A stretch of DNA of 32,000 nucleotides from Acidothermus cellulolyticus 11B (GTDB taxonomy: Bacteria > Actinomycetota > Actinomycetes > Acidothermales > Acidothermaceae), in NCBI RefSeq assembly GCF_000015025.1, contig NC_008578.1, forward strand, positions 120,001 to 152,000, written 5' to 3'. Each line of letters opens with the position of its first letter. Position 1 is the first letter of the stretch. This document shows, one piece after another, positions 13,902 to 31,704 of this stretch. The notes beneath the pieces were generated by a model. The model did not search any database and was not told where the DNA came from. It saw only the letters and a list, made by a program, of their open reading frames with translations. Made by a program: the position numbers and the translations under genes.

Positions 13902-13927
13902 GCCCTACTGACGGTGTCCTAAGGCAC

Positions 13928-13966
13928 GCCTGCCGGCTGGGCAAGCGACTTGCCCAGCCGGCAGGC
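13928..13966 (+). other. Intercistronic hairpin after cebE (18-bp perfect stem, 3-nt loop)
   Basis: gcctgccggctgggcaag-cga-cttgcccagccggcaggc lies between the cebE stop (13901) and the cebF start (14026). No U-tract follows. Confidence 0.6.
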
Positions 13967-14025
13967 TTCCCACCAGAATTCCGAACAACAAGAAATTCAG
14001 CACACGGACCAAGGAGACGGCGCCA

Positions 14026-14988
14026 ATGACGGCCGTGCACGAGACTCACTCAATTTCTACTGTGCCGACCTCCTCTCCACGCCGCCGTCTTCGTCCACGG
14101 ATCGCCCTGATCGGGTCGAAGGCCGCCTACGTCTATGTAGCGCCGTTCTTCATCCTCTTTGCTGTCTTCGGCTTGTACCCACTGATCTACACCGGGTGGG
14201 TCTCGCTGCACGACGTCAGCCTGCTCAACATCAACAAGATGACGTGGGTGGGCTTCAAGAATTACACGTCTCTCTGGCACAACCACTTCTTCCTGAACGC
14301 GCTCGGCAACACCATCACCATTGGCATCATTTCCGCCGTTCCGCAATTGCTGGCCGCATTGGGCATTGCGCACTTGCTGAATTACCGCATGCGGGGATCC
14401 CTGATGTTCCGCATCGCAATGCTCATGCCTTACGCAACCTCGGTCGTCGCCACGACGCTCATCTTCAGCCAGCTCTTTGCCCGTGACACCGGGTTCATCA
14501 ACTGGTTCCTCGGCCTCTTTGGCGTCAGTCCCATTAACTGGAACAACGGCCCGAAATATCTCTCCCAGCTTGCGGTCTCGACGATGGTCATGTGGCGGTG
14601 GACGGGATACAACGCTTTGATCTATCTCGCCGGCATGCAGGCCATTCCATACGAGCTGTATGAAGCGGCCGCCATCGACGGAGCCAACCGGTGGCAGCAA
14701 TTCATGAAGATCACAATTCCGTCGCTGCGGCCGACGATCCTCTTCACCGTTGTGGTCTCCACGATCGGGTCGATGCAGTTGTTCGCCGAACCGTACCTGT
14801 TCAGCAACAACACCAACGGTGGCGGCAGCGGTCAGTACCAGACGCTGACGCTCTTCCTCTACCAGCAAGGCTGGCAGTACAACCACCTCGGTTATGCCGC
14901 AGCCGTGGCGTGGACGATGCTGGCAATCATCGTCGTCCTCGTCCTTATCAATGCGGGCTTGACCAACCTGCGGGCGCGGAAAGGTTAG
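14026..14988 (+). CDS. cebF: ABC sugar transporter permease (MalF/CebF type)
   Basis: ATG follows AAGGAGA. 320 aa with 6 TM and an EAA-loop region (YEAAAIDGANRWQQFMKITIPSLRP). Confidence 0.9.
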   Translation: MTAVHETHSISTVPTSSPRRRLRPRIALIGSKAAYVYVAPFFILFAVFGLYPLIYTGWVSLHDVSLLNINKMTWVGFKNYTSLWHNHFFLNALGNTITIGIISAVPQLLAALGIAHLLNYRMRGSLMFRIAMLMPYATSVVATTLIFSQLFARDTGFINWFLGLFGVSPINWNNGPKYLSQLAVSTMVMWRWTGYNALIYLAGMQAIPYELYEAAAIDGANRWQQFMKITIPSLRPTILFTVVVSTIGSMQLFAEPYLFSNNTNGGGSGQYQTLTLFLYQQGWQYNHLGYAAAVAWTMLAIIVVLVLINAGLTNLRARKG

Positions 14989-14993
14989 AGGCG

Positions 14994-15881
14994 ATGGCAA
15001 CCGTCGAACAAACCATTCGTACCGCGCCGGCGCGGCGCTCGCGGCGGCGCTCACGAGCCGGTCGGCAGCTGACCGCCGGGCCTTTCACCTACATCGTGCT
15101 GACCATCGTGACGGTGATTTCGGTCTTTCCGCTGTACTACACGATGGTGATCGGCTCGCACACCAATGCCGAGATGGCGCAAACCCCGCCGCCGTTCACC
15201 GTCAATACCTCGCTCTTCGACAACATGCGTGGAGCGCTCAAGCAGCAGCCGCTCTTCCGCGACATCTTCAACTCCATCATCGTGTCCGGATTCATCACCC
15301 TCGGAACAGTCGCTTTCTGTACCCTGAGCGGTTTCGCCTTTGCGAAACTCCGTTTTCGCGGCAACAAGCTCTTGTTCGCACTGACCATCGGGACGACGCT
15401 TATTCCCCCGCAGCTCGGCGTCATTCCGCTCTACATCTACATGTCCAAGTTTCACCTCACCCACCACTTGGCTGCTGTAATCTTGCCGAACCTGGTCAGC
15501 GCATTCGGCGTGTTCTTCATGCGCCAGTACCTTGTGACGGCGATGCCGACGGAGCTGCTTGAAGCAGGGTGGGTGGACGGAGCGTCGACATTTCGCATTT
15601 TCCGCTCCGTCGTTGTGCCGATCGCGCGTCCTGCCATGGCGGTTCTCGGAATGATCACATTTCTCTTTGCCTGGAACGACTTCTTCTGGCCGATGATCGC
15701 GCTGACCACGCGGAATGCAACCGTTCAGGTCGGTTTGGCGGGTCTGGGTCAGGGTTACGTACCGCAGCAGGCGATCATCATGGCAGGCACCATGCTCTGC
15801 ACCTTCCCGCTGCTCATCGTTTTCGTGTTACTCGGCAGGCAGATTGTTGGAGGCATCATGCAAGGAGCGGTCAAGGGATGA
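14994..15881 (+). CDS. cebG: ABC sugar transporter permease (MalG/CebG type)
   Basis: This is the internal ATG 14994 of ORF 14691..15881, 6 nt after the cebF stop. It has an EAA loop (LEAGWVDGASTFRIFRSVVVPIARP) and 6 TM. Confidence 0.9.
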   Translation: MATVEQTIRTAPARRSRRRSRAGRQLTAGPFTYIVLTIVTVISVFPLYYTMVIGSHTNAEMAQTPPPFTVNTSLFDNMRGALKQQPLFRDIFNSIIVSGFITLGTVAFCTLSGFAFAKLRFRGNKLLFALTIGTTLIPPQLGVIPLYIYMSKFHLTHHLAAVILPNLVSAFGVFFMRQYLVTAMPTELLEAGWVDGASTFRIFRSVVVPIARPAMAVLGMITFLFAWNDFFWPMIALTTRNATVQVGLAGLGQGYVPQQAIIMAGTMLCTFPLLIVFVLLGRQIVGGIMQGAVKG

Positions 15882-17314
15882 CACAAATCGAAGAGCGCGA
15901 TCAGGTCGAGAGTCGGCCCACGCTACGGTTCCCTGACCGCTTTGTGTGGGGTGTGGCGACGTCCGCCTACCAAATCGAAGGCGCCGTTGCTGAGGACGGG
16001 CGCGGTCCGTCGATTTGGGATACGTTCAGCCACACGCCGGGAAAGGTGGTCGGCGGCGATACCGGAGATGTCGCCGCCGACCACTACCACCGTTACGTCG
16101 GCGACGTCCGGTTGATGGCGGACCTCGGGGTCACGTCCTACCGGTTCTCGGTGGCGTGGCCGCGTATCCTGCCCAGCGGCTCCGGTGCGGTCAATCGAGC
16201 CGGACTCGATTTCTACTCCCGTCTGGTCGATGAGCTGCTGAACCACGGCATCACGCCTGCACTGACGCTTTACCACTGGGACCTCCCGCAGGCGTTGCAA
16301 GACCAGGGCGGGTGGACGAATCGTGCAACTGCACAGCGATTCGCTGAATATGCGGTCGTCGTCGCCCGCGAATTGGGTGATCGGGTGAATTTCTGGATTA
16401 CTCTCAACGAGCCGTGGTGCGCGGCGTTCCTCGGTTACGGGGCGGGCGTTCATGCACCCGGACACACCGACAGTGCGGAAGCCTTGACGGCGGCGCATCA
16501 CCTGCTCCTTGCGCACGGCCTGGCAGTCCAGGCCCTGGGCTCGGTTCTGCCGCCGGATTGCCAGATGGCGATCACGTTGAATCCAGCGGTCGCGCGACCG
16601 GCGAGCCTCGCCGAGGAAGATGTGGCCGCCGCCCGGAAGGTCGACGGATTACAGAATCGGCTCTGGCTGGATCCGCTGTTTCACGGCACCTATCCGCAGG
16701 ATGTGGTGAATTTCACGTCAAAAGTCACCGACTGGTCGTTCGTCCGTGACAACGACCTCGCAGTGATTGCGACCCCCTTCGACATTCTGGGGGTCAATTA
16801 CTATAACCCGGTCATCGTCGGTCACTATGCCGGCTCCGGATCGAGGGGACGCGACGGCCACGGTCAGGGAACCGGTGAGACCTGGCCCGGGTGCCCCGAT
16901 ATTCAGTTTCCCGAGTGGCCGTTCCGGCGGACCGCGATGGGCTGGCCCATTGACCCCTCCGGACTCTACGAACTCCTCATTCGGCTGAACCGCGACTATC
17001 CACGGCCGATCATGATTACTGAGAATGGCGCCGCGTTCGATGATGTCGTCACGGACAACAATCGGGTGCGGGATCCGGCACGGGCGGCGTACATCCAGGA
17101 ACATCTTGCCGCCCTCCACCAAGCGATTGCCGACGGCGTGGACGTTCGCGGTTATTACCTCTGGTCATTGATCGACAACTTTGAATGGGCGTACGGATAC
17201 TCACGCCGGTTCGGCATCGTTTATGTCGATTTCGAGACTCAGGAGCGGATCATCAAGGACAGTGGGTATTTCTACTCGCTGGTCGCACGGACGAACACGA
17301 TCGCGGCGCCCTGA
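15878..17314 (+). CDS. bglC: GH1 beta-glucosidase
   Basis: ATG at 15878 overlaps the cebG stop (ATGA). GH1 signatures are present: FVWGVATSAYQIEGA, acid/base TLNEP, nucleophile ITENGAA, and DNFEWAYGY. Confidence 0.95.
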   Translation: MTQIEERDQVESRPTLRFPDRFVWGVATSAYQIEGAVAEDGRGPSIWDTFSHTPGKVVGGDTGDVAADHYHRYVGDVRLMADLGVTSYRFSVAWPRILPSGSGAVNRAGLDFYSRLVDELLNHGITPALTLYHWDLPQALQDQGGWTNRATAQRFAEYAVVVARELGDRVNFWITLNEPWCAAFLGYGAGVHAPGHTDSAEALTAAHHLLLAHGLAVQALGSVLPPDCQMAITLNPAVARPASLAEEDVAAARKVDGLQNRLWLDPLFHGTYPQDVVNFTSKVTDWSFVRDNDLAVIATPFDILGVNYYNPVIVGHYAGSGSRGRDGHGQGTGETWPGCPDIQFPEWPFRRTAMGWPIDPSGLYELLIRLNRDYPRPIMITENGAAFDDVVTDNNRVRDPARAAYIQEHLAALHQAIADGVDVRGYYLWSLIDNFEWAYGYSRRFGIVYVDFETQERIIKDSGYFYSLVARTNTIAAP

Positions 17315-17397
17315 GGGGATATTTCGCTCAGGCGGTATCGCCACTTCCCGAGGACATATCACCGCTCCCTGAGAGGCATCGCCCTGAGGGATATCGC
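17310..17397. repeat. Five degenerate tandem repeats of about 16-17 bp (consensus about CCYGAGGnnATATCGCC) starting on the bglC stop codon
   Basis: The units are cctgaggggatatttcg, ctcaggcggtatcgcc, cccgaggacatatcaccg, ccctgagaggcatcgcc and cctgagggatatcgcc. Unit 1 contains the bglC TGA (17312-17314). Confidence 0.7.
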
Positions 17398-17756
17398 CGT
17401 GTCTCGCTGGGACGTCGCGGCACTCCGGGAGACGGTGGGTTCCATGAGGGGACGACCCGATCGATGAGACGACGAGCCGCCGCGGGCGACGAGCACGATC
17501 GCTGATCCCTGACACGGCGCGCCGCGCGTCGTGACGGTCCGTGTGCGGGTAGCGGTGCGGGCGCCGGGTTGGGGAAGGTGGCGACGACCGCAGTGACAGT
17601 CCGTGCACGGGTGACGGCTGTGCGGATGACGGCTGCACATGCCGGTCAGCTAACCGCTCGCCGGAAAATGACCTGCTGATGCCCGGGTACGTACGGCGGT
17701 GCACCCGACGCACGGACCGTTCGCCGGAAACTGACCCGCCGGCGCACGGGTGGCGG

Positions 17757-18788
17757 CTAGCTCGATTCGCGGATGATCAGCTCCGTCGGCACGATCAGTG
17801 ACGCCGGGCGGGTGCCCGGATTCCGCAGTTGGGTGAGGAGAAGCCGCGCCAACGACCTTCCGATCTCCTCCATCGGCTGACGCACCGACGTCAGTTGCGG
17901 TTCGGCAAGGCGCGCCGCGTGCGAGTCGTCAAAACCGACCACCGCCACGTCGTCCGGAATCTTGCGTCCCGCAGCCCGCAAGGCGCGGATCGCCCCGATC
18001 GCCATGAGGTCGCTCGCGGCAAAGACCGCGTCTAAATCCGGAACGCGAGCAAGCAACTCACGCATGGCACGCTCGCCGCTCTCCTCGGAGAAGTCACCGT
18101 GCGCAACCAAGCGGCGCCAGCTGCGCCGTGCCGGAGCCGGCAGCGCCTCCCGGAATCCTTCGAGTCGGTCCACACCAACCGGCATGTCTTCCGGGCCGGC
18201 GATCGTCGTGATACGGCGGCGGCCCCGTTCAAGGAGGTGTGCAACCGCGGCAGAAGCGCCACCCCGGTTGTCCGCGTCGACATACGGGACGTTGACCCCG
18301 GGGAAGGGCCGGCCGGAGAGCACCATCGGCGTCTCGGTGGTCGCCAGCACCTGCAGCAACGGGTCCTGCCGGTGAAGGGACATCAGAATGAACCCGTCAG
18401 CGTGACGGTTCCGGATGTACCGCTCGATCCGCGATCGATCACCACCCGCGCTCAGCAGGACAAAGGCAAATTCTGTATTCGCCAGTTCCTCGTTGATTCC
18501 GCGTATGGTCCCTGCGAAGAAGGGTTCAGAGAAAACGCGGGTCTCCGGCTCGGAAACCACGAGCGCAATCGTGTCGGTACGCTGCGTGACGAGTGATCGA
18601 GCGGCGCGATTCGGAACATAGCCGAGGGCCTCGATAGCCCGCTCCACGGCGCGTCGCGCCTCGGGCGACACCCGCGGGGAACCCGTCAACACCCTGGAGA
18701 CCGTCGTCTTCGAGACCCCCGCGGCAGCGGCTACCGCCCAGACCGTTGGGCGACGACCAGCCGCCCGCTCTGCTCGCGCCGAGGTCAT
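17757..18788 (-). CDS. cebR: LacI-family transcriptional regulator (CebR/CelR-like)
   Basis: 343 aa, with the ATG preceded by AGGAAGGA. It has an N-terminal HTH (VWAVAAAAGVSKTTVSRVLTG...YVPNRAARSLV) and a periplasmic-binding-protein-like sugar-binding core. It lies next to cebEFG-bglC and divergent from the GH6 gene, with a CebR-type box between them. Confidence 0.85.
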   Translation of the reverse strand: MTSARAERAAGRRPTVWAVAAAAGVSKTTVSRVLTGSPRVSPEARRAVERAIEALGYVPNRAARSLVTQRTDTIALVVSEPETRVFSEPFFAGTIRGINEELANTEFAFVLLSAGGDRSRIERYIRNRHADGFILMSLHRQDPLLQVLATTETPMVLSGRPFPGVNVPYVDADNRGGASAAVAHLLERGRRRITTIAGPEDMPVGVDRLEGFREALPAPARRSWRRLVAHGDFSEESGERAMRELLARVPDLDAVFAASDLMAIGAIRALRAAGRKIPDDVAVVGFDDSHAARLAEPQLTSVRQPMEEIGRSLARLLLTQLRNPGTRPASLIVPTELIIRESS

Positions 18789-18946
18789 GAACGATGTTCC
18801 TTCCTACCATCAGTGTGTCTCAGGGTAACGCTAAGTGGTCAATCCACCGGAAGAAATCATGCCTCTATCAGGTCGAATGATTCCATTCGGTGCAACGCCT
18901 CCAGGGTCTTGACACTGCGAGCCCTCTCCGCCGACACTACCGAGTG

Positions 18947-18960
18947 TGGGACCGTTCCCA
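18947..18960. promoter_or_regulatory. CebR/CelR-type 14-bp operator in the cebR-GH6 divergent region
   Basis: TGGGACCGTTCCCA has perfect TGGGA/TCCCA arms and is self-complementary at 12 of 14 positions. It closely matches the actinobacterial cellulase operator TGGGAGCGCTCCCA. A TTGACA hexamer lies at 18909-18914. Confidence 0.6.
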
Positions 18961-19081
18961 CCACTGTAACGGTGATCCACCGGCGAGGCGAGCCGCCGTC
19001 CGGGCTAGTCAAGCGGTAAAACGCCGTACGTCGTGCCGACATCGCGGCCATTCACGAACCACCGAGACGAAGGGCAAAACG

Positions 19082-20491
19082 ATGGGAACGTACCCAATCC
19101 GGTCAGTGTCCGGCGGTGTCGCGCTCGCCGCCTGCGCCGTCCTCACGATGACCACTGCGGCGGCTGCAACACCGATCCATGATGCCTCATCGCCGCACAC
19201 CATTCCGCCGCACGCACGGCTCTATACCCCTCCGCCAGACAAAGGTGCGATCAAGCAAATCACCGACCTGCTGAAGGCGCGCGACGTCCGCGACGCCCGC
19301 CTGATTGCGGAAATGATTTCCACTCCGCAGGCGGTCTGGTTCACCGGCGGCACGCCCGATCAGGTACGCCGCGACGTCCATCGGGTCGTCACCAAGGCGG
19401 CGGCGCATCACGCCATTCCCGTCCTCGTTGCGTACAACATTCCATTCCGCGACTGCTCGCAATATTCCGCCGGCGGCGCGGTGGACACGGCCGCGTACGA
19501 AGCATGGATCGACGGATTCGCTGCTGGAATCGGCGACAAAAGAGCCATCGTGCTCCTCGAGCCGGACAGCCTGGGCATCATTCCGTACAACACGGATATC
19601 AACGGAAACGCCGAGTGGTGCAAACCGGATCTCAGCGGTACGGGATTGACGCCCGACGAGGCGAACCAAGCACGCTACGACCAGCTGAACTACGCAGTCG
19701 ACGCACTCGAGGCGCACCGCAATGTGAGCGTCTACCTCGACGGCACGCACAGCGGATGGCTCGGGGTCGGAGATATTGCGCAGCGGCTCGTCCGAGCCGG
19801 TGTGCAACGGGCACAGGGCTTTTTCGTCAACGTGTCCAATTACCAGACGACCGAGCGGCAAATCAAATACGGCACCTGGATTTCCGAGTGCATCGCCTTT
19901 GCGAACGATCCGGAGGAAGGCGGCTGGCGACTCGGACACTACAGCTGGTGCGCCAGCCAGTACTACCCGGCGAATCCGAACGACTTCAGCACGTGGGTTC
20001 AGACCGACCAGTGGTATGCGAGCAATTTAGGAACGGCGGTTCCGACGACGCACTTCGTCATCGACACCAGCCGTAACGGGCGCGGACCGAACGACATGAC
20101 GGCGTACGCCGCCGCGCCGTACAACCAACCGGCCAGCGTCATTTCGGCGCTCCAAGGCGGTAGCTGGTGCAATCCGCCGGGCCGGGGACTTGGGTTGCGG
20201 CCCACGGTGAATACCGGCGTACCGCTGCTCGATGCCTACCTCTGGGTGAAGATTCCCGGCGAATCGGATGGGCAGTGCGATGCTGCCGGCGGCGCCCGGG
20301 CCTGGGACTACTCGGCGTACACCGAACCGGGTTGGCCGACCGATCCCAGCCAGCAGGCGCTCTTCGACCCGCTCTGGGGCTTGTACGACCCGCCCGCCGG
20401 GCAGTGGTTCCCGCAGCAGGCCCTTCAGCTTGCGCAGCTCGCTGTCCCGCCGTTGCAGCCGCAGTGGCCCGTCCCGCCGGTGCATCACTGA
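19082..20491 (+). CDS. Secreted GH6 cellulase (endoglucanase/cellobiohydrolase family 6), catalytic domain only
   Basis: This is the internal ATG 19082 of ORF 18890..20491. It has a signal-like N-terminus (GGVALAACAVLTMTTAAAA). GH6 blocks are present: VLVAYNIPFRDCSQYSAGG, IVLLEPDSLG, YLDGTHSGWLG, GFFVNVSNY, YLWVKIPGESDG. No CBM is apparent. Confidence 0.9.
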   Translation: MGTYPIRSVSGGVALAACAVLTMTTAAAATPIHDASSPHTIPPHARLYTPPPDKGAIKQITDLLKARDVRDARLIAEMISTPQAVWFTGGTPDQVRRDVHRVVTKAAAHHAIPVLVAYNIPFRDCSQYSAGGAVDTAAYEAWIDGFAAGIGDKRAIVLLEPDSLGIIPYNTDINGNAEWCKPDLSGTGLTPDEANQARYDQLNYAVDALEAHRNVSVYLDGTHSGWLGVGDIAQRLVRAGVQRAQGFFVNVSNYQTTERQIKYGTWISECIAFANDPEEGGWRLGHYSWCASQYYPANPNDFSTWVQTDQWYASNLGTAVPTTHFVIDTSRNGRGPNDMTAYAAAPYNQPASVISALQGGSWCNPPGRGLGLRPTVNTGVPLLDAYLWVKIPGESDGQCDAAGGARAWDYSAYTEPGWPTDPSQQALFDPLWGLYDPPAGQWFPQQALQLAQLAVPPLQPQWPVPPVHH

Positions 20492-20554
20492 GGGGCCCTG
20501 CCACGGACATGAACCTTCGGCGAACAACGTGACGATGGGAGGTGTTGGCAAGAG

Positions 20555-21232
20555 TCAATCGCCGTACGCCGCAGACCCGGCCCACAGCAGACCTCGCTCT
20601 ACGATGCGCCGGGTCTGCGGCACCAGAAGATCCTCGGGGGAATGGCCGAGAGTGCAGACGAAAACCTTTCCCTTCTGAAAGCGACGTGTCCACACCACCG
20701 GCATGACCGCGCCTGCAGTATCCGGCGCGCCGTGCCCGCCATTGAAAGTTGTTGTTGCGTGTACCCGCAGGGTCGGGTCGACGTGGCAGAAGTACTGCTC
20801 GGTGTGCACATCGAACCCGTCGACACCGCTAACGATCGGGTGATCGCCGGTGATGTCGACGCGATAGTCGACGAAATCTCCTGGATGCGCGACGAAATGA
20901 CCGCCCACCATGAACTGATAGCGGTACGCAGCGTCGAAGGTCGCAAGCACGCCACCGTGCCATCCCGCGAATCCTGCGCCCCGGGTGACCGCGCCCACCA
21001 ATCCGTCTTCCTGGTCCGGCGTTAGAGCGCCGCCGGTCCAGCACTGCACGATGAGCGAGAAAGATCGCAGCAGCTCGGTGTCCGCATACACCTCGAGGTC
21101 CTCGCGCACGAGGACGTCGAAGCCGTGTTCGCGGAGGCAGGGAAGGAAGAGGTCGGTGCAGGCCGCCGGTTGGTGTCCTTCCCATCCGCCGCGGACCACC
21201 AAGGCCCGCTGGGTGCCATTCGTCGTATCCAT
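20555..21232 (-). CDS. ThuA-domain (trehalose-utilisation-like) protein
   Basis: 225 aa. RALVVRGGWEGHQP..., GFAGWHGG and the C-terminal VFVCTLGHS fit the ThuA family layout. Confidence 0.8.
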   Translation of the reverse strand: MDTTNGTQRALVVRGGWEGHQPAACTDLFLPCLREHGFDVLVREDLEVYADTELLRSFSLIVQCWTGGALTPDQEDGLVGAVTRGAGFAGWHGGVLATFDAAYRYQFMVGGHFVAHPGDFVDYRVDITGDHPIVSGVDGFDVHTEQYFCHVDPTLRVHATTTFNGGHGAPDTAGAVMPVVWTRRFQKGKVFVCTLGHSPEDLLVPQTRRIVERGLLWAGSAAYGD

Positions 21233-23320: not shown

Positions 23321-23387
23321 ACTATTCGACATTCGGGCGCGGCTAACGAAGCCGCGCCGATCGTTGCCGAGACCCGATGAGGACGCC

Positions 23388-25589
23388 GTGACCGAGCTCC
23401 CTGCGCTTGAAGAGATCGAGGGCGCCGAGGTTCCGCTGACCGATGGCGCGGCGGCGGGGATGGTCACCCTCGTTGAAGGGGTGACATTCTGCATTTGCGG
23501 CCGGTCCGGGGACATTCACGGTGCGCAGCAGGGACTGTTTTTCCGCGACACCCGTTTCATCAGCCGCTTCGAATTGATCGTCGACGGTCAGCATGTCGAG
23601 CCGCTGGCCACCTACCGTCCGTGGCCGTATGCCGGGACTTTCATCGCCCGCCGGCCGCCGCGGTCGGCAAACGTGGACAGCACACTGCTTGTCATCCGCC
23701 GCCGGTATGTCGGCAATGGGATGCGCGAAGACGTCACGATCCGGAATTTGGGCAGGGAGACGGCCGGCGTCCTGCTCAATCTTGAGGTGGACAGCGATTT
23801 CGCCGGTTTGTTCGAGGTGAAGGAGGGCACCGTCCGGGTCCGTGAGAGCATCCAGCGCGAGGTCCGCGGCAACGCGCTCTGGCTGGGATTCCGTCGAGGC
23901 GGGGAGACCCGGGCCGTCGTCGTGACGGCGGATCCTCCGGGAACCGCTCTCTTCGGCACCACGGCCTCAGCGACGACCGGCAGTATCGGCTGGCAACTCG
24001 TCGTCCACCCTCATCAGGAGACGACCGTCAGCATCCAGGTGACCGTCGAGGTTGACGGGGTCGAGGTGCCGCCCCGGTATCGGCTGGGTGAGCCGGTTGA
24101 GGCCAGTCAGCCCGCCACGAAACTGGCCGCCTGGCGATCAGTCACTCCGTCGGTCCAGACCCCCGATGAGCGCCTTGCCACCCTGCTGAAGAAGAGTGCG
24201 GAAGACCTCGGCGTGCTCCGCATCTTCGATCCCGACCATCCCGACCGGGCAATTGTGGCTGCGGGCGCTCCGTGGTTCATGGCGATTTTCGGCCGGGACT
24301 CGCTCATCACGAGCTGGATGGTTCTTCCCCTCGATCCGAGCCTCGCGCTGGGCACCCTCCAGACCCTTGCCGAATTGCAAGGAAAGAAGGTTGACCCGCT
24401 GTCGGAGGAGGAACCAGGCCGTATCCTGCACGAAGTCCGGTCCGCCATGGACGTCGACCTTGCACTCGGCGGGAGCAACATCTATTACGGCAGCGTTGAC
24501 GCGACGCCCCTCTTCGTCATGCTGCTCGGTGAATTGCGCCGGTGGGGGCTGGCCCGCCAAGACGTGGACGCCCTGCTCCCCTATGCCGATCGAGCGCTCG
24601 AATGGATTACGACATACGGCGACAAGGACGGCGATGGATTTGTCGAGTACCAGCGGGCCACCGACCGGGGTCTGGTCAACCAGGGTTGGAAAGATTCCGC
24701 TGACTCCATTACGTTCGCCTCCGGTATCCCGGCGCGGCCGCCGATTGCGTTGGCGGAAGTGCAGGGTTATGTCTACGCCGCCTACCTTGCGCGCTCTCAT
24801 TTCGCGCGGGAACTCGGGCAGCGCGACGTTGCCGAACATTGGGCGGCGAAGGCGATGGAATTGAAACGCCGGTTCAACGAGGAATTCTGGATTTCCGACC
24901 GCGGCTACTACGCGATCGCGCTGGACGCCGACAAGAAGCCGGTCGACGCCCTCGCGTCTAACATGGGGCACTGTCTGTGGACGGGAATCATCGACGAGGA
25001 GAAGGCCCCGTCGGTCGCGGCCCATCTCCTCGGTCCGGACATGTTCACCGGATTCGGCGTCCGCACACTCGCGTCGTCCATGGCGGCGTACAACCCGATG
25101 AGCTACCACAACGGTTCGGTCTGGCCGCATGACAATGCGATCGTTGCGGCGGGTCTGATGCGATACGGCTTCGTCGCCGAAGCACAGCGGATCGCCCTCG
25201 GATTGATCGACGCATCGGCGGCGTTCGGCGGCCGGCTTCCGGAGCTCTTCTGCGGCTTCGACCGCTCGGAATTCGCCGTTCCCATCCCATACCCCGCCTC
25301 GTGCTCCCCGCAGGCATGGGCGGCCGCGGCGCCGTTCTATCTGCTGCGGACCCTGTTGCGTTTCGATCCGTGGGTGCCGTTCGGCCAGGTGTGGTGCGCA
25401 CCCGCTGTCCCATCGCGCATGGTGCCGCTCCGGGTCGAGCGATTGCACGTCGCCGGCTCGACGGTCAGCGTCGACGTGACCGCAGACGGAGCGACGGTCA
25501 CGGGGCTGCCCGACGGGGTCGAGCTGATCGTGCAAGCACGGCCGCCGCTCACGGCCTCGTCGGTTCCACCGCTCGATGGCGGCGCCTGA
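23388..25589 (+). CDS. Amylo-alpha-1,6-glucosidase / glycogen-debranching-enzyme-like protein (GDE_N_bis plus GDE_C type)
   Basis: The ORF spans 23364..25589. GTG 23388 is preceded by GAGGA, and ATG 23460 is an alternative start. The N-terminal LVEGVTFCICGRSGDI, then GAPWFMAIFGRDSLITSWM, GRILHEV, YGSVDATPLF, EYQRATDRGLVNQGWKDS and YHNGSVWPHDNA are typical of the bacterial/archaeal GDE_C family. Confidence 0.85.
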   Translation: MTELPALEEIEGAEVPLTDGAAAGMVTLVEGVTFCICGRSGDIHGAQQGLFFRDTRFISRFELIVDGQHVEPLATYRPWPYAGTFIARRPPRSANVDSTLLVIRRRYVGNGMREDVTIRNLGRETAGVLLNLEVDSDFAGLFEVKEGTVRVRESIQREVRGNALWLGFRRGGETRAVVVTADPPGTALFGTTASATTGSIGWQLVVHPHQETTVSIQVTVEVDGVEVPPRYRLGEPVEASQPATKLAAWRSVTPSVQTPDERLATLLKKSAEDLGVLRIFDPDHPDRAIVAAGAPWFMAIFGRDSLITSWMVLPLDPSLALGTLQTLAELQGKKVDPLSEEEPGRILHEVRSAMDVDLALGGSNIYYGSVDATPLFVMLLGELRRWGLARQDVDALLPYADRALEWITTYGDKDGDGFVEYQRATDRGLVNQGWKDSADSITFASGIPARPPIALAEVQGYVYAAYLARSHFARELGQRDVAEHWAAKAMELKRRFNEEFWISDRGYYAIALDADKKPVDALASNMGHCLWTGIIDEEKAPSVAAHLLGPDMFTGFGVRTLASSMAAYNPMSYHNGSVWPHDNAIVAAGLMRYGFVAEAQRIALGLIDASAAFGGRLPELFCGFDRSEFAVPIPYPASCSPQAWAAAAPFYLLRTLLRFDPWVPFGQVWCAPAVPSRMVPLRVERLHVAGSTVSVDVTADGATVTGLPDGVELIVQARPPLTASSVPPLDGGA

Positions 25590-25711: not shown

Positions 25712-25874
25712 TTCTGCCGGGTAATCAGGCTGATGGATTCGGCGAGAGCGTCCGGCGCCGGCATCCGCCTTGATCTTTGAATCGTTAGTGCTGGACATGG
25801 CGCACCGACCCCGGTGTCGGCGCATCGCCGGCTCCGCATGCTCGTCGCCGTTCGGTAGCGAGAAAGGGGGCGCT

Positions 25875-27008
25875 ATGAGCGCAGTGGTGTCTGCTGTTCG
25901 TCCGGCGGAACCGGTCCAACCGGCACGCCGCAGCCTGCACATCGCGATGGTCGCGCCTCCCTACTTCCATATCCCCCCGTCCGGGTACGGCGGCGTCGAG
26001 CAGGTCGTCGCCGATCTGGTCGATGGTCTCGTCGAGCGGGGTCACCAGGTCACCCTGATCGCCGCCGGTGAAGCACGGACCAAGGCGACCCGATTCATCC
26101 CGACCTTCCCCGAGCCGCTCTCCGATCAGCTTGGTCTGCCGACCCCTGAAGTGCTGCACGCGGCACGGGTTGCCCGCGCGCTTGAGGGTCTCGACGTCGA
26201 TCTTGTTCATGATCACACGCTGGCGGGACCGTTGCTCGCCCGCGGGCGACTCGCACCCACCATCGTCACCGTTCACGGCCCGGTGTCCGGCGATCTCGGA
26301 GTGCTCTACGAGGCGTTAGGTGACACGATCAAACTGGTCGGCATTTCCGAGGCGCAGCGCGCGGCCGCACCGGCCTTGCCGTGGGTGGGCACGGTCTACA
26401 ACGCGATCCGCGTGGAGACCTTCCCCTTCCGGGCGGAGAAGGAGAATTTCGCACTGTTCATCGGGCGGTTCCATCCCGAGAAGGCTCCACACCTGGCCAT
26501 CGACGCGGCGCGAGCGGCAGGCCTGCCGATCGTGCTTGCCGGTAAGTGCGCTGAGCCGATAGAGAAGGCGTACTTCGAGGAGTACGTCCGCCCACGCCTC
26601 GGGCCCGATGTCACGCTCTACGGCGTGGCGGACGCGCACGCCAAGCGTGAGCTGTTCTCAGCTGCGTGCTGCCTGCTCTTCCCCATCTGCTGGGAGGAAC
26701 CCTTCGGCCTCGTCATGATCGAGGCGATGGCCTGCGGTACGCCCGTGGTCGCACTGCGTCGCGGTTCCGTCCCCGAGATCGTGGTGGACGGCCGCACCGG
26801 TGTGGTGGTGGACACGCCGGAGGAGCTGCCGGATGCGATCCACCGGGCCCGTCGGCTCGATCCGCGGGATTGCCGCGCTCACGTTGAACACGAATTCAGC
26901 GTGGCGCGGATGGCTGCCGGCTACGAGGCCGTGTACGAGCGGGTGCTCTCGGCCATTGCCGAGCCGAGTGCGGACGGGCAGCTTCACCTCTCCGCGGGGA
27001 CGGCGTAG
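25875..27008 (+). CDS. GT4-family (GT-B fold, retaining) glycosyltransferase
   Basis: This is the internal ATG 25875 of ORF 25770..27008, preceded by GAAAGGGGG. It has an N-terminal IAMVAPPYFHIPPSGYGGVEQVV and the C-terminal E-x7-E region (EEPFGLVMIEAMACGTPVVALRRGSVPEIV). Confidence 0.9.
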   Translation: MSAVVSAVRPAEPVQPARRSLHIAMVAPPYFHIPPSGYGGVEQVVADLVDGLVERGHQVTLIAAGEARTKATRFIPTFPEPLSDQLGLPTPEVLHAARVARALEGLDVDLVHDHTLAGPLLARGRLAPTIVTVHGPVSGDLGVLYEALGDTIKLVGISEAQRAAAPALPWVGTVYNAIRVETFPFRAEKENFALFIGRFHPEKAPHLAIDAARAAGLPIVLAGKCAEPIEKAYFEEYVRPRLGPDVTLYGVADAHAKRELFSAACCLLFPICWEEPFGLVMIEAMACGTPVVALRRGSVPEIVVDGRTGVVVDTPEELPDAIHRARRLDPRDCRAHVEHEFSVARMAAGYEAVYERVLSAIAEPSADGQLHLSAGTA

Positions 27009-27709
27009 ACGACGACGTTGTCGACGTAGTGGCCGGTCTTCCGGTCGAAGGGTCCGCCGCACGTGACGAGCACGAGCCGCGGAGTTGTCGCCTGGTCGAA
27101 AACCGAGGCGGGAAGGGCGGTCTTTCGGTAGACGCGGCGTCCGACAACGCGATACGTGAACGTGCCGCGGTCCGTTTGCACAAGGACGGCCGACCCCATG
27201 GGAAGCCGGTCCAGGTAGAAGAGCGCGCCGGGTCCCGCTTCGGCGGTGTCGACGTGGCCATCGAGGACGACCGTGCCTTCCTCCCCCGGGGCAGCACCCT
27301 GGCGCCACCAACCGACGACGCGAGGATCCGCCGGTACGCCGAGTGTTCCGTCGGGAAGTATGCCGACGGGCTGGACCGGGGCGCTGACCTTCAGTGCCGG
27401 GATTTCGAGCCGAAGGACGTGCGGTCGCGGGGCCGTGGCGGGCGTGGGGGTGGCCGTGGGCGTGCTGTATCCGAGGCCTGACGCGCTGCCGGCAGTGGCA
27501 GGGTTTGGTGTCCCGGCGGCCCACGGTGGCTGGTTCCCGGACGGCGGTCCGCCGGGGACGATACCCGCCGGACGCGGCGTGATGTAGCCGGATTGCGTTG
27601 CCGCCCACCCGGAACCGGCGAGCAGAACAAGGCCGGCAGCGGCGGCAAGAATCTCCCAGCGCAACCACCACCGGTGGCTGCGCTGGGAGCTGGATGAGTT
27701 GCCACCCAC
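26984..27709 (-). CDS. Sortase (class F/E-like), N-terminally membrane anchored
   Basis: GTG start. It has a TM anchor (WWLRWEILAAAAGLVLLAGSGW), LEIPALKVSAPV, the catalytic His context VVLDGHVD, and the catalytic Cys in LVLVTCGGPFD. The 3' end overlaps the convergent GT4 gene by 25 bp. Confidence 0.85.
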   Translation of the reverse strand: MGGNSSSSQRSHRWWLRWEILAAAAGLVLLAGSGWAATQSGYITPRPAGIVPGGPPSGNQPPWAAGTPNPATAGSASGLGYSTPTATPTPATAPRPHVLRLEIPALKVSAPVQPVGILPDGTLGVPADPRVVGWWRQGAAPGEEGTVVLDGHVDTAEAGPGALFYLDRLPMGSAVLVQTDRGTFTYRVVGRRVYRKTALPASVFDQATTPRLVLVTCGGPFDRKTGHYVDNVVVYAVPAER

Positions 27710-27836: not shown

Positions 27837-28394
27837 CTAGTGGGTTGACCGGCGGGCGCGGAACGCGAAACCACCGGCGCTCGCAAGCAAGGCGGCACCG
27901 CCTAGCGCCGCCAGCGTGGTGACCAACCAGGTGTTGTGCCGCTGGTCAGCTTGGCCGCCGGTGCCGGCGGTGACCCCGGAGGGCGCAAAGCTGATCAACG
28001 CAAAGGCACTCTCCGTCGGGTTGGGCGTCGGCTGAGCAACGGTGATCATGCAGGGTTGCGTGGCGCTGCAGGTGACATTGTTCTGCCCAAAGGGCCCCTT
28101 GGTCACGGTGATGCTGGCTGATACCGCTCCGTTGGCGTTCGACGTTGTGCTCACCACGCCGTTGAGGTTGCAATCAGCCTGCGAGGTGGAGGCCCCTTTC
28201 GCGGCGCATTCGGTGACAACTAACGGTTCGTTCGGTGAGAATCCGGTGCCGGTGACCTTCACGGTCTGACCGGAAGCGAGGCCCGTACTCGGTGAGACTG
28301 TGATCGACGGACTGGCAGCCGATGCAGGCGCCGACAACAGGATGACCGCTGCCGCTGGGGCAACGAGGGCACTGAGCGCGCCGAAACGTTTCAT
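27837..28394 (-). CDS. Secreted neocarzinostatin-fold domain protein with C-terminal sorting-signal-like anchor
   Basis: ATG at 28392-28394 is preceded by GGGAGG. It has a signal peptide (MKRFGALSALVAPAAAVILLSAPASA). The domain ITVSPSTGLASGQTVKVTGTGF...ECA...DCN...NGAVSASITV...CSATQPCMITV...ALISFA parallels the apo-neocarzinostatin fold. The C-terminus is a hydrophobic helix followed by RARRSTH. Confidence 0.8.
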   Translation of the reverse strand: MKRFGALSALVAPAAAVILLSAPASAASPSITVSPSTGLASGQTVKVTGTGFSPNEPLVVTECAAKGASTSQADCNLNGVVSTTSNANGAVSASITVTKGPFGQNNVTCSATQPCMITVAQPTPNPTESAFALISFAPSGVTAGTGGQADQRHNTWLVTTLAALGGAALLASAGGFAFRARRSTH

Positions 28395-28561
28395 GTCGCA
28401 CCTCCCGAGAGGAACACGGTGATCCGTACGTTCTGCCACAGAGCAGATGGATCTTGCGCTGACGGGAGGAATTGTTCCACTCGGGAAGATCGTGTAACAG
28501 ACGTCCGGCGGTAGAAGGCTCGCTCACCGCGCGCCGTGATCCGTGAACGATCCCGTTGTCG

Positions 28562-29173
28562 TTACGCCGCACTCCACGCGGCGCGCAGCCTCGTCGTCCC
28601 CTCCAAAGCGACGAGGGTGACCGACGTCGTGATGCCGATTCCTGCGCTCACGAGCACCGGAATGTCCCGCGCAAGGAGCGCATATCCGAGCCAGCAGAGC
28701 TGGGAACCGCTGCGCAGCAACCATGTCGTCACCGAAACGCCGGAGATTACACCGGACCGGTAGGTGCCGAGGGATTCGTACACCTGCGGCAAGCTGGAGA
28801 ACAAGCCAATACTGAAGCCGAGGTAACCGACCAGCTCCGCCGGTAAGGCCCACGACAACGCGAGCACGGCACTTGCGGCTGCGATCATGCGGAGCATGCG
28901 GCTGCGCCGGGACAATCGGGCGGGCACCAGGATGGTGACGATCGACGCGCCGGTGATGAGCAGTGCGTTGCCGGGAACCTGCGGAAGTGAGGCGGTTCGC
29001 AGCCCGTAGCTCAGCCAGGCCAGTCCGCTGGTGGTCATGATCCCCCAGGTGAAGGCGGAGACGCCTCCGCGGCCCGGATGGCGAATCACCCGGGCGATCT
29101 GTGGAATCACCATGACGACGCCGAACAGTGAACCGAAGTAGCCGAGGGCGAAGGCCAGCTCGTGCTTGGTCAC
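28562..29173 (-). CDS. Internally duplicated PQ-loop (SWEET/SemiSWEET-superfamily) 7-TM membrane protein
   Basis: GTG start is preceded by GAGGAG; 203 aa. There are two PQ motifs at helix-1 positions (VIPQIARV at residues 24-25; SLPQVYES at residues 129-130). Each is followed by a Trp-containing helix (LAWLSYGL, LCWLGYALL). Seven hydrophobic segments are arranged 3+1+3. Confidence 0.7.
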   Translation of the reverse strand: MTKHELAFALGYFGSLFGVVMVIPQIARVIRHPGRGGVSAFTWGIMTTSGLAWLSYGLRTASLPQVPGNALLITGASIVTILVPARLSRRSRMLRMIAAASAVLALSWALPAELVGYLGFSIGLFSSLPQVYESLGTYRSGVISGVSVTTWLLRSGSQLCWLGYALLARDIPVLVSAGIGITTSVTLVALEGTTRLRAAWSAA

Positions 29174-29201
29174 GGATCACTCCTCGGTTCGCAACGTGAT
29201 T

Positions 29202-29213
29202 GTAACGATACAG
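29202..29213. promoter_or_regulatory. LacI-type operator candidate in the divergent PQ-loop / LacI intergenic region
   Basis: TGTAACGATACA is self-complementary at 10 of 12 positions with a central CG. It is flanked by the inverted repeat CGATAC-n7-GTATCG (29206-29224). Confidence 0.4.
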
Positions 29214-29276
29214 CAAGCGTATCGACATGGCGCGGACGGTTCTCCAGCTGCTGCGGCCACCATCGTGCTCGGTACC

Positions 29277-30323
29277 GTGGCGGTCGTGGAACGGCGTCCA
29301 ACTCTCGACACGGTTGCGCAGGCGTGCGGCGTTTCTCGGATGACGGTCTCCAACGTGTTCAATCGGCCTGACCAGGTGGCGGCCGAGACCCGGGAGCGGG
29401 TCCTCCGCGCGGCGCAGGCGCTGGGTTACATCGGACCCAATCCGACCGGCCGGTCGCTACGGCACGGTCGGACGCAGACGATCGGCGTCCTGCTCACCGA
29501 GCGCCTGCCGTATGCGTTCACCGATCCGGGATTGCTGCAATTCCTGCAGGGCGTCGCGACCGAGCTCGCAACCTGGGGACACGCGCTGCTTTTGCTTCCC
29601 ACTCAAGAAGGACCGGAAGCCGGCTCGGTGGCCGGCACAGCGCTTGTTGACGGCTTTCTCATCGTCCTGGCGGGGGCTTCCGACCCGGCGGTCACCCAGG
29701 TGCTGCGCCGTGGGCTGCCGGCGGTGAGTTGGGGTCAGCCGCGACTGCCGGGCGTCCCGCGCATCGGCATTGATAACACGCGGGCCGCCGCCGAGGTCGC
29801 CCGGCACCTCCACGATCTCGGCCATCGTCGGGTCGGTGTGATCAGCTTCGGCGCTGGGCGACAGCTCCGCGCGGTTCACCAGACGATGCGGCAGCGCGTC
29901 ACCGGCTTCAGCGCGGTTTTCGCTGCCGATCCGCAGGCCGTCGTGCAGGTGGTGCACGCCACGGCGAACACCCGCTCGGCTGGCTCGGAAGCGGCGCGAG
30001 ATCTCCTGGCCGCTGAACCTCGACCGACGGCAATCTTCGCCGTGACCGACGTCCTTGCTCTAGGGGCTCTTGACGAGGCGATGCGGCAACGGATCGCCGT
30101 CCCAGCCGAGCTCTCGGTTGCTGGTTTTGATGACATTCCGGAGGCTGCTCGGGCCGTGCCCCCGCTGACCACGTTCTCGCAGGCCCTTGCGGAACAGGGA
30201 CGCGCGGCGGCGCGGATGCTCTTGGACCGGATCGCGGGACGTGCCGGCTCGGTGCCGGCGTTGGAAACGCGGTTGGTTGTCCGGGGCAGCACGGCACCTG
30301 CCTCGGTCCTTGTCGAGGCGTGA
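29277..30323 (+). CDS. LacI-family transcriptional regulator
   Basis: This is the 3' part of ORF 29166..30323. Likely GTG starts are 29277 or 29286, just before the HTH (RPTLDTVAQACGVSRMTVSNVFNRP...YIGPNPTGRSL). A sugar-binding core follows (VTDVLALGAL, SVAGFDDIPEA). Confidence 0.85.
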   Translation: MAVVERRPTLDTVAQACGVSRMTVSNVFNRPDQVAAETRERVLRAAQALGYIGPNPTGRSLRHGRTQTIGVLLTERLPYAFTDPGLLQFLQGVATELATWGHALLLLPTQEGPEAGSVAGTALVDGFLIVLAGASDPAVTQVLRRGLPAVSWGQPRLPGVPRIGIDNTRAAAEVARHLHDLGHRRVGVISFGAGRQLRAVHQTMRQRVTGFSAVFAADPQAVVQVVHATANTRSAGSEAARDLLAAEPRPTAIFAVTDVLALGALDEAMRQRIAVPAELSVAGFDDIPEAARAVPPLTTFSQALAEQGRAAARMLLDRIAGRAGSVPALETRLVVRGSTAPASVLVEA

Positions 30324-30558
30324 CACGCGGGGGAGGTGTGTTTCTTCGCCCGTTGCCTGTGGGTACCCGCGGCGGCTGCGCTCTCGGATGTGGAGATCTG
30401 GCCCGCCAGGGCGTGACAGCTGCGCGTCCGGCCGGTTTCGCTCGAACGTCGCAGCCCCGTGGACCGTTATAGCTGTTGCAGCGCTTGGGCGATCAGAGCG
30501 TTGCAGTCCGGGAGGTGCCGCGGCACCGACGCGCAGGTCGGCATGAAAGGACCGTTTA

Positions 30559-31704
30559 GTGGGCAGCAAACCCGATGCACGGATTGAGCGCCGAAGCCTC
30601 CGTGTTCCGCTTTCTGTTTCGGACAGCCGGCCGGAGCGTGCCGCATATGCCCTGCTCCCGCTGCGCGCGTTCCTCGGCTTCACCTTCTGTTACGCCGGCC
30701 TGCAGAAGCTCGCGAATCCCGCGTTCTTCAATGCCCGCAGTCCCATCTCGATTCAGGCCCAATTTCTGGGAGCGGTGCGGCGCAGCCCGATTCACGCCCT
30801 GCTTCAGCCGTTGTCGTCGCACGCTTGGGCGATCGGGGTTCTCATGGCGCTCGGCGAGTTGGCGGTCGGTTTAGGCACGCTGGCCGGACTCTTCACCCGG
30901 ATCGCCGCGCTCGGCGGTGCCGTGATTTCGTTCAGTCTTTTCCTCACCGTAAGCTTTCACAGCAATCCGTGGTACACCGGCTCCGACATCGTCTTCTTCT
31001 TCGCCTGGTTGCCGCTTCTCGTGGCGGGTGGCGGGCCGTTCTCTCTTGATGCCTGGGTTGACCGCGCGGTGCAACGACGAGCATCGAGCCGCGCGCGTGC
31101 GGATGTTCCGCCTGATGAGATGCGTCGCCGGCTGGTTGGCTCGCTTGCTGTTCTCCTCGGTGCGTTCGGTATGGCACTGGCCGGCTTGACGGCGGGTATC
31201 GGTCGTCTGCTCTACACGCCAGCAACGTCGGGCGCTACCTCCGCGCTTCCGGGCGGCGGTTCGCCCGGCCTGGCCCGGCCGTCCCCGTCCGGCGGAACCG
31301 CCGCCGGCGGGACTCCGTCCGGCGGTGCGGCGTCAGGAAATCCGTCCCCTGCCGGTGGGCCGTCCGCCGGTGCGTCGTCTCCCGGAGCCTCGTCGGGCGG
31401 AGTGCGGATCGGTCCGGCGAGTGCCGTGCCGATCGGCGGTGCGGCAAGCTTCCAGGATCCGGCGACCGGCGATCCGGCGATCGTCGTCCGCCCGAGCGCC
31501 GGTGTTTTTCACGCATTCGACGCGGTATGTCCGCATGCCGGATGCACCGTCGGTTACGACCCGTCGAGCGCGGTGCTGGTGTGTCCCTGCCACGGATCAC
31601 GGTTCAATGCCACGAGCGGCGCGGTGCTCAACGGTCCGGCGCCGACGGGACTGACACCGATCAAGATCCGTGAAGGCTCGGACGGACAACTCTATGTTGA
31701 CTGA
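30559..31704 (+). CDS. DoxX-family membrane domain fused to a C-terminal Rieske [2Fe-2S] domain
   Basis: 381 aa, with an uncertain GTG start. It has four DoxX-like TM helices (LRAFLGFTFCYAGLQKL...), then RRR plus a fifth TM, then a Pro/Gly/Ser/Ala-rich linker. The Rieske motif is CPHAGC-x12-CPCHGS (C-x-H-x15-C-x-x-H). Confidence 0.85.
   Translation: MGSKPDARIERRSLRVPLSVSDSRPERAAYALLPLRAFLGFTFCYAGLQKLANPAFFNARSPISIQAQFLGAVRRSPIHALLQPLSSHAWAIGVLMALGELAVGLGTLAGLFTRIAALGGAVISFSLFLTVSFHSNPWYTGSDIVFFFAWLPLLVAGGGPFSLDAWVDRAVQRRASSRARADVPPDEMRRRLVGSLAVLLGAFGMALAGLTAGIGRLLYTPATSGATSALPGGGSPGLARPSPSGGTAAGGTPSGGAASGNPSPAGGPSAGASSPGASSGGVRIGPASAVPIGGAASFQDPATGDPAIVVRPSAGVFHAFDAVCPHAGCTVGYDPSSAVLVCPCHGSRFNATSGAVLNGPAPTGLTPIKIREGSDGQLYVD

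Follow-up and report, generated by a model that had tools for sequence, protein, structure and literature searches.

A seven-helix SWEET-fold membrane protein of Acidothermus cellulolyticus and its divergent IpsA-like LacI regulator: a predicted sugar or polyol facilitator cassette with a conserved candidate operator

To our knowledge, the SWEET-family proteins of bacteria are almost all three-helix SemiSWEETs, and few of them have a known physiological substrate. Longer forms exist as well: Jia et al. (2017) reported SWEETs of 6-7 helices in bacteria and argued that fusion is possible in prokaryotes (PMC5742349). Here we describe a locus in a 32,000-nucleotide stretch of the Acidothermus cellulolyticus 11B genome (NC_008578.1, positions 120,001 to 152,000; "the window", to which all coordinates refer). 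Two divergent genes make up the locus: an open reading frame (ORF) of 203 amino acids on the minus strand (28562..29173) for a seven-helix PQ-loop (SWEET-fold) membrane protein, and a LacI-family ORF on the plus strand (29277..30323). We consider it likely that they form a two-gene cassette, in which a SWEET-fold facilitator for a small neutral carbohydrate or polyol is repressed by the divergent IpsA-like LacI protein through a 14-bp operator. The transporter family, the fused architecture and the logic of LacI control are already known; the clade, the IpsA-like partner and the operator are new details. The bacterial proteins of Jia et al. have a fused 6-7-helix build like that of the window protein, but their description covers architecture only, with no regulator, operator or substrate (PMC5742349), whereas here a regulator and an operator are predicted.

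Eukaryotic SWEETs (AtSWEET13, PDB 5XPD; OsSWEET2b, PDB 5CTG/5CTH) carry seven helices in a 3+1+3 layout on one chain, as does the window protein, and in both, helices 1 and 5 carry the PQ prolines, helices 2 and 6 a Trp and helix 3 an Asn. The predicted topology of the window protein, with the N-terminus out and the C-terminus in, is likewise theirs. It differs from them in its low identity (14–17% only), in a match to the Pfam model MtN3_slv that stays below the cut-off, in Ala for the helix 7 pocket Asn, and in its size of about 200 amino acids, without a cytosolic C-tail. Bacterial SemiSWEETs (Leptospira biflexa 4QNC, E. coli 4X5M, Thermodesulfovibrio 4RNG, Bradyrhizobium 9KAX) match each repeat of the window protein significantly and agree with it in the PQ motif and in where the pocket (Trp/Asn) and gate (Tyr/Asp) residues stand. 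SemiSWEETs are however proteins of about 90 amino acids with three helices that need to dimerise, whereas the window protein is a fusion of two diverged repeats with a linker helix, which gives it a built-in asymmetric pocket.

For the regulator, the closest solved and characterised relative is IpsA of Corynebacterium and Mycobacterium. IpsA of Corynebacterium glutamicum (Cg2910, PDB 3H5T) is a LacI-type dimer that activates ino1, represses other genes and comes off the DNA in response to myo-inositol (PMC3899939). No PQ-loop gene is among its listed direct target genes, and in many Corynebacteriales genomes ipsA adjoins znuACB and otsAB with no PQ-loop gene mentioned (PMC3899939). Our literature search found no paper in which any SemiSWEET or bacterial SWEET is assigned a regulator or an operator, nor one on a PQ-loop gene together with LacI in actinobacteria.

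The fused transporter

The transporter gene begins with a GTG codon (29173-29171), a position consistent with the N-termini of the homologues in the family alignment, and 6 nt 5' of it the sequence reads a Shine-Dalgarno-like GAGGAG (29180..29185, minus strand). The coordinates 28562..29173 include the stop codon. Repeat 1 (residues 1-88, helices 1-3; 28910..29173, minus strand) contains P24-Q25, the pocket residues Trp53 and Asn69 and an invariant PQxPGN motif (64-69). It is followed by linker helix 4 (residues 89-109; 28847..28909, minus strand), a helix in the AlphaFold2 model, which an Arg-rich cytoplasmic loop (R86-R95) precedes. Repeat 2 (residues 110-203, helices 5-7; 28565..28846, minus strand) contains P129-Q130, Trp161, Tyr164, Asp170, Ala177 in place of the pocket Asn, and an invariant Glu191. 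All residues that the initial annotation of this ORF had singled out are found where it placed them. The G+C content at third codon positions (GC3) is 0.82 for the transporter ORF and 0.75 for the LacI ORF, values typical of real genes in this window of 66% G+C.

Conservation was followed in two alignments. The clade alignment holds the window protein and 24 database relatives (38-95% identity, all 203-242 amino acids long), which are cluster representatives from a library of 5.8 billion proteins. Invariant in these 25 sequences are P24, Q25, W53, Y56, P64, Q65, P67, G68, N69, P129, Q130, W161 and E191, among them every PQ, Trp and Asn residue on which the initial annotation had built its case; Arg28 and Arg92 at helix ends are invariant too, and Glu191 is an acidic residue in helix 7. 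In the wider alignment of the window protein with 66 relatives, Q25, Q130 and W161 are invariant and P24, W53, Y56, N69 and P129 occur in at least 90% of the sequences, the PQ prolines in at least 94%. Three of the four SWEET pocket residues (W53, N69, W161) are thus kept. The fourth, the counterpart of N69 at position 177, is Ala in 24 of the 25 clade members and Ser, Asn, Ala or Thr in the wider family, so that the predicted pocket of the window protein is asymmetric; the initial annotation had noted the asymmetry of the two halves. Y56/Y164 and D170-P172 correspond to the gate of the Leptospira SemiSWEET, which consists of a Tyr and of an Asp that precedes the loop Pro.

The two halves of the protein are homologous. 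Profile-profile comparison of repeat 1 with repeat 2 by hhalign gives a probability of 97% and E 1.6e-11, with 28% identity over 71 columns, and both halves match the same SemiSWEET structures with similar scores. The whole protein scores 33.3 bits against the Pfam PQ-loop model (PF04193; cut-off 22). When the halves are taken separately, as the initial annotation had proposed, the first reaches 22.7 bits and the second stays below the cut-off (18.0 bits, E 0.0025). With the clade profile against PDB sequences it is the second half that matches solved SemiSWEETs best (E. coli 4x5m, E 1.4e-8; Leptospira 4qnc, E 4.7e-8), while the first half (residues 9-75) matches a Leptospira SemiSWEET mutant entry, 5uhs, at E 1e-7. 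In the 5uhs match W53 and N69 align to the SemiSWEET Trp/Asn pair, and W161 also aligns with the SemiSWEET pocket Trp. AtSWEET13 gives a collinear match over residues 6-180. With the profile of the wider alignment, E-values of 8e-19 to 1e-12 are reached for eight SemiSWEET structure sequences, and AtSWEET13 is matched over both repeats at 2.7e-7. Three NCBIfam SemiSWEET models match at E 3e-14 to 6e-9. The protein is a member of the SWEET/SemiSWEET family (TCDB 2.A.123; the clan of PF04193 and PF03083).

A closer assignment to one NCBIfam subfamily was tried and rejected. NF037967 ("SemiSWEET_1") is a double-length profile of 196 positions that aligns over residues 11-188 of the transporter, and the score is 53.4 bits against a curated cut-off of 200. 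The best E-value against this model among the 67 members of the wider alignment is 2e-18. These low scores indicate a subfamily different from SemiSWEET_1.

The fold agrees with the sequence matches. The AlphaFold2 model, built from the 25-sequence alignment, has a mean pLDDT (predicted local distance difference test) of 90.0 and a pTM (predicted template modelling score) of 0.83. Its helices span residues 3-31, 40-60 and 65-82, then 89-109, then 112-140, 148-168 and 171-202, which bears out the seven hydrophobic segments in 3+1+3 order that had been read from the sequence. The six top Foldseek matches in the PDB are all AtSWEET13 or OsSWEET2b chains over the full length, with template modelling (TM) scores of 0.76-0.80 (normalised to the query) and a root-mean-square deviation of about 3.1-3.5 A. 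Next come cystinosin (TM 0.53-0.68) and the KDEL receptor (TM 0.49-0.59). Within the helix limits of the model, 11 Lys/Arg residues lie in loops 1-2, 3-4, 5-6 and the C-tail and 3 on the opposite face; this bias implies the SWEET topology, with the N-terminus out and the C-terminus in. The initial annotation had named a match confined to one half, another topology or a family with a non-transport function as grounds for giving up its SWEET proposal. None of these was found, and the sequence profiles, the internal-repeat test, the confident model and Foldseek all agree on SWEET architecture.

The order of the Foldseek groups bears also on what the protein does. It might be a PQ-loop transporter of a non-carbohydrate solute, possibly proton-coupled and similar to cystinosin or PQLC2, which carry amino acids and cationic compounds. 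This is quite improbable in our view. In its favour, cystinosin is the next-best structural group, the Pfam match is to the generic PQ-loop and not to MtN3_slv, one pocket Asn is lost, an acidic residue in helix 7 (Glu191) is invariant, and so are Arg28 and Arg92 at helix ends. Likeness to SWEETs is nevertheless clearly higher, and with family profiles against all PDB sequences the significant matches are SemiSWEETs and one SWEET, none being a cystinosin, PQLC or KDEL-receptor chain. In addition, the SemiSWEET sugar-pocket residues coincide exactly in the alignment with the repeat 1 Trp/Asn and the repeat 2 Trp, and the partner regulator is of the LacI family, whose members sense sugars, polyols and nucleosides.

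It is hardly credible that the ORF encodes a PQ-loop-fold protein with a non-transport role of the KDEL-receptor kind, or that it is non-functional or a chance ORF. KDEL receptors do share the fold, and high-GC DNA yields many spurious ORFs. However, the transport-motif residues are invariant, and KDEL receptors do not appear among the sequence matches. Conservation of the ORF extends over 24 cluster representatives (38-95% identity) and 78 metagenome loci (38-100%), its GC3 is that of real window genes, and a dedicated conserved operator lies in front of it. PnuC, MPC and KDEL-receptor-like readings were tried and set aside; they have no sequence support, and their structural support is weaker or nil.

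How common the fused form is was seen in an exhaustive profile search of 1.84 billion cluster representatives, which gave 2033 matches at E<=1e-3, 369 at E<=1e-10 and 37 at E<=1e-30. Most of the 150 best matches span both repeats and 123 of them are at least 185 amino acids long, from which we conclude that the fused form is not rare. The statement in the initial annotation that it has been reported only sporadically in prokaryotes understates its spread in metagenomes, given the report of Jia et al. (PMC5742349) and the 369 representatives at E<=1e-10. The clade with a paired LacI gene is a small branch of this fused family, roughly the 37 matches at E<=1e-30. It comes from soil, peat and rhizosphere metagenomes. 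The named members among the relatives are metagenome-assembled genomes of actinomycetes; examples with the cassette are JAVHVL01 (Pseudonocardiales) and GCA_035261645.1 (Jatrophihabitans). In structure the protein is a SWEET (Foldseek), while by profile against PDB its sequence stands closer to SemiSWEETs than to plant SWEETs. This closeness in sequence suggests that bacteria may have acquired the 3+1+3 layout by a fusion or duplication of their own, separate from that of eukaryotes.

The LacI partner and the candidate operator

The regulator is a LacI/GalR-family protein with an N-terminal helix-turn-helix (HTH; PF00356, 49.9 bits) and a periplasmic-binding-protein-like effector domain (PF13377, Peripla_BP_3, 111 bits; PF00532, Peripla_BP_1, 66 bits). 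As listed, its ORF has 385 amino acids and begins at TTG 29166. The Pfam HTH begins only at residue 46 of that ORF, and the orthologues begin 6-10 residues ahead of the HTH, so the listed ORF is over-extended. The true start is probably GTG 29277 or GTG 29286, which would give a protein of about 345-348 amino acids, as the Pfam domains, the orthologues and the PDB match suggest, and therefore an intergenic region of 103-112 bp.

Pairing of the two genes is conserved. The contigs of eight distinct relatives were examined first, and a metagenome scan with a 10-sequence sub-alignment added 78 loci, which encode transporter relatives at 38-100% identity; a single-protein search of genome contigs gave one locus. 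In seven of the eight first-examined relatives a LacI-family gene is divergent from the transporter gene, and these LacI proteins are 48-75% identical to that of the window and to each other. Taken over all related loci (L001, L005, L008, L011, L013, L014 and most of the 78 metagenome loci), the divergent orthologues have 48-80% identity and an almost invariant recognition region, GVSRMTVSNAYNRPDQ. An orthologue is present wherever there is enough upstream DNA, except in L002-L004 and L077, and the comparison supports the pairing with a divergent LacI gene that the initial annotation proposed. L077 is the most distant member of the metagenome set (38% identity) and has neither LacI nor the operator motif on its short contig. 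L009, a distant relative at 25% identity, lacks both as well.

It was the comparison of loci that revealed the candidate operator, the short dyad having been missed by the inverted-repeat search. When the upstream regions of the first-examined relatives were lined up, CTGTATCGTTACAG appeared in every one, and the consensus of the family is the 14-bp sequence CTGTATCG(T/A)TACAG, upstream of the transporter gene. We counted it in 67 distinct upstream sequences, from loci with at least 140 nt of upstream DNA. With at most one mismatch it occurs in 66 of the 67, exactly in 38, and its orientation relative to the transporter gene is always the same, whereas 439,795 flanking bases contain no match at that threshold. 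The window operator, CTGTATCGTTACAA (29200..29213, on the minus strand, which is the coding strand of the transporter), has one mismatch to the consensus and is the sole site in the window, the 32 kb holding no further copy. The distance from it to the transporter start downstream is 27-40 nt, and that to the LacI start, on the other side, about 64 nt. The palindrome TGTAACGATACA (29201-29212), through which the initial annotation had assumed control, is present as the core of this 14-bp site, although it is imperfect, with 10 of 12 positions symmetric. Its conservation in front of the transporter gene and its absence from the flanks argue for the proposed control.

Two operator copies are found in 42 of the 67 distinct loci, with starts 14-16 nt apart (31 distinct loci) or 24-26 nt apart (10 distinct loci) (e.g. 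L014, 5018-5055; L008, about 2301-2339). Here 27-37 nt separate the proximal site from the start codon. Many proximal sites in related loci read as the perfect palindrome CTGTATCGATACAG, or as a variant whose centre is CC or CA. The window has one good site only. A possible degenerate second site, CCATGTCGATACGC (29217..29230, minus strand), 17 nt upstream of the main one, is weak at 9 of 14 matches and not callable on its own. A 14-bp dyad with a central CG is typical of LacI-family operators, and the conserved predicted operator fits the palindromic, central-CG kind of the LacI/GalR family near a regulated promoter. The same DNA accounts for a gene-calling artefact: the 20-40-residue N-terminal extensions of the relatives P0008, P0010, P0011 and P0022 (…CCIVTxLYRYR…) are artefactual because they are translations of the conserved operator DNA 5' of the true start.

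In L002-L004 (Joint Genome Institute metagenome contigs, about 4843-6630) the adjacent LacI protein is a 32% paralogue, encoded in tandem and with a different recognition helix, and the transporter gene has kept its operator despite this non-cognate neighbour. It follows that the operator belongs to the transporter gene as the regulated target and that the cognate regulator can act in trans. For these three loci, either a gene elsewhere must supply the cognate regulator or another protein has taken its place.

The best solved relative of the window regulator is IpsA (3H5T; 172.9 bits, E 1e-49), followed by 5YSZ (136.6 bits), whereas NCBIfam returns RbsR, CytR and GntR models only, all far under their cut-offs. 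The regulator and 3H5T are 38% identical over 332 residues. They are far more alike in the DNA-binding region and in the strand that opens the effector domain, where they share SRxTVSNAYNRPxQ...GYxGPDP...IGVLLTExLxYAFxD. On sequence grounds we place the regulator in the IpsA-like branch. The IpsA sites of the ino1 promoter, CTTGATCGATCAAG (oligonucleotide table of PMC3899939), and the operator form CTGTATCGATACAG are both dyads with the central ATCGAT in common, and the outer bases differ. The six central bases of mapped IpsA sites were found to be crucial (PMC3899939).

This likeness leads to the question whether the cassette could be a facilitator of myo-inositol, or of a related cyclitol or polyol, under an IpsA-type inositol sensor. 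We think this improbable. The likeness to IpsA is no evidence for inositol as the effector, as at 38% identity one cannot assume the same specificity, and no ino1 gene or second operator was found in the window or related loci.

Proposed mechanism and points against it

For the preferred reading, a repressed facilitator of a small neutral carbohydrate or polyol, we propose the following. Two triple-helix bundles, the product of an old internal duplication or a fusion, would be joined by helix 4 as an inversion linker, so that one polypeptide forms the pore that a SemiSWEET makes as a dimer. In SemiSWEET and SWEET structures, to which the window protein is homologous, the bundles rock about the PQ prolines without energy coupling. 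Here too the PQ prolines may serve as hinges, the bundles exposing a central pocket to each side in turn; this pocket would be lined by Trp53, Asn69 and Trp161 and be asymmetric through Ala177. The protein would then most likely be an energy-independent alternating-access facilitator; that it transports at all, and does so as a uniporter of this class of substrate, we infer from its homologues.

On the side of control, a dimer of the IpsA-like LacI protein would sit on CTGTATCGTTACAa, the site at 29200-29213 just upstream of the ribosome-binding site of the transporter gene, and repress this gene, and probably its own as well, until an effector is bound. The effector would presumably be the transported compound or a close metabolite. 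On the operator the dimer may occlude the promoter or the transcription start, and with the divergent gene at a distance of 64 nt, autoregulation could result as well. That the protein represses rather than activates is likewise an inference.

Several observations weigh against this reading. The SWEET-specific Pfam model, MtN3_slv (PF03083), gives 18.5 bits against a cut-off of 23.7, and the protein is far under the cut-offs of all three NCBIfam SemiSWEET subfamily models. The second pocket Asn, which is conserved in eukaryotic SWEETs, is Ala, and conventional sugar binding may therefore fail. The sign of regulation is uncertain because IpsA is both an activator and a repressor (PMC3899939). 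A promoter scan detected no sigma-70-type promoter in 28400-30500, so the overlap of operator and promoter is deduced from distances only. The remaining points come from the surrounding genes. When the two closest neighbours on either flank of the cassette were tallied in a census (86 downstream and 52 beyond-LacI non-redundant proteins), no sugar-catabolic gene proved consistently linked to it. Seven alpha-glucosidase-like genes of glycoside hydrolase family 13 (GH13), with major facilitator superfamily (MFS) genes, do occur, but in one sub-lineage, convergent with the transporter gene and without the operator.

No Pfam family has more than seven members in the census. Since there are no recurrent linked genes, we regard the cassette as a free-standing sensor-plus-facilitator unit, which would fit either the uptake of a compound catabolised elsewhere or the regulated release of an internal metabolite. 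The second option deserves attention: with the same fold and the same repressor switch, the protein could be a safety valve for homeostatic efflux of a cytoplasmic sugar or polyol (a compatible solute, or an intermediate such as inositol), released when its accumulation lifts repression. We regard export as possible, though on the unlikely side. Plant SWEETs act as effluxers, and the lack of linked catabolic genes in about 60 distinct contexts is usual for regulator-plus-efflux pairs and unusual for sugar utilisation loci. Moreover, IpsA, the closest characterised regulator, senses an endogenously made metabolite (PMC3899939). On the other hand, LacI-family regulators mostly control uptake and catabolism, and the same operator could govern catabolic genes at other places in the genome. 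Uniport can run either way, and sequence does not tell the two roles apart.

Surrounding genes and wider meaning

The GH13 genes of the sub-lineage lie 3' of the transporter gene (L057, L065, L070, L071, L078, L085), often with an MFS transporter between. The enzyme resembles oligo-1,6-glucosidase and trehalose-6-phosphate hydrolase, with about 320-330 bits to the treC models, which is below the cut-off. A gene of glycoside hydrolase family 36 (GH36) is found in a single lineage only. An alpha-glucoside or alpha-galactoside as the substrate, as the GH13, MFS and GH36 neighbours could suggest, was rejected, these genes being restricted to lineages and the GH13 and MFS genes convergent without an operator.

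In the window the cassette is surrounded by genes for a sortase, a neocarzinostatin-family secreted protein, a glycosyltransferase of family 4 (GT4), a debranching-enzyme-like protein and a DoxX-Rieske fusion, none of them recurrent across loci. The debranching-enzyme-like (MGH1-like) glycoside hydrolase (23364-25589, plus strand) is followed by the GT4 glycosyltransferase (25770-27008, plus strand), and in L005 and L013 a GlgC-like nucleotidyltransferase gene and a GT4 gene are a few genes away from the cassette. Such glycogen-type and GT4 neighbours look like core-genome synteny, not a functional link. The sortase gene (26984-27709, minus strand) adjoins that of the 200-residue neocarzinostatin-family protein (27837-28439, minus strand), whose C-terminus, a hydrophobic segment with an RARR tail, is sorting-signal-like; no obvious LPXTG/LAXTG motif was seen in it.

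Directly 3' of the LacI gene lies the DoxX-Rieske gene (30559-31704, plus strand), whose product consists of a DoxX/DoxD membrane domain, a long linker rich in Pro, Gly, Ser and Ala and a C-terminal Rieske [2Fe-2S] domain. The DoxX family presumably includes the YphA proteins. IpsA of C. glutamicum represses cg0534, the gene of a YphA-family membrane protein (PMC3899939). The operator scan of the window found no copy upstream of the DoxX-Rieske gene.

Farther away the window contains a separate cluster of the beta-glucan/cellobiose type (10609-21232). It comprises genes for a CBM6 protein (10609-12018, minus strand), a sugar-binding protein (12513-13901), a permease of an ATP-binding cassette (ABC) transporter (14026-14988), a GH1 beta-glucosidase (15569-17314), a second LacI-family regulator (17757-18788, minus strand), a GH6 cellulase-family protein (18890-20491) and a ThuA-family protein (20555-21232, minus strand). 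The operator CTGTATCGWTACAG is absent from this cluster, and for this reason the two LacI systems look independent.

The single-chain, naturally asymmetric SWEET-fold protein of 203 amino acids is attractive for structural and mechanistic work. Together, the regulator and its sharply defined operator offer a practical route to the substrate, by way of ligands that release the regulator from the 14-bp site. Once the inducer is known, high-GC actinomycetes could be equipped with the pair as a compact inducible switch. If the inositol reading were true, no earlier bacterial SWEET-fold protein would have had its regulator, its operator and a non-sugar-like substrate defined, and the cassette would place an independently evolved full-length bacterial SWEET in the inositol homeostasis of non-mycolate actinomycetes, that is, in the supply of precursors of mycothiol and phosphatidylinositol. 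For the family as a whole, the clade is a bacterial example of the 3+1+3 fusion from which eukaryotic SWEETs came, and through its closeness in sequence to SemiSWEETs it bears on whether this architecture arose more than once.

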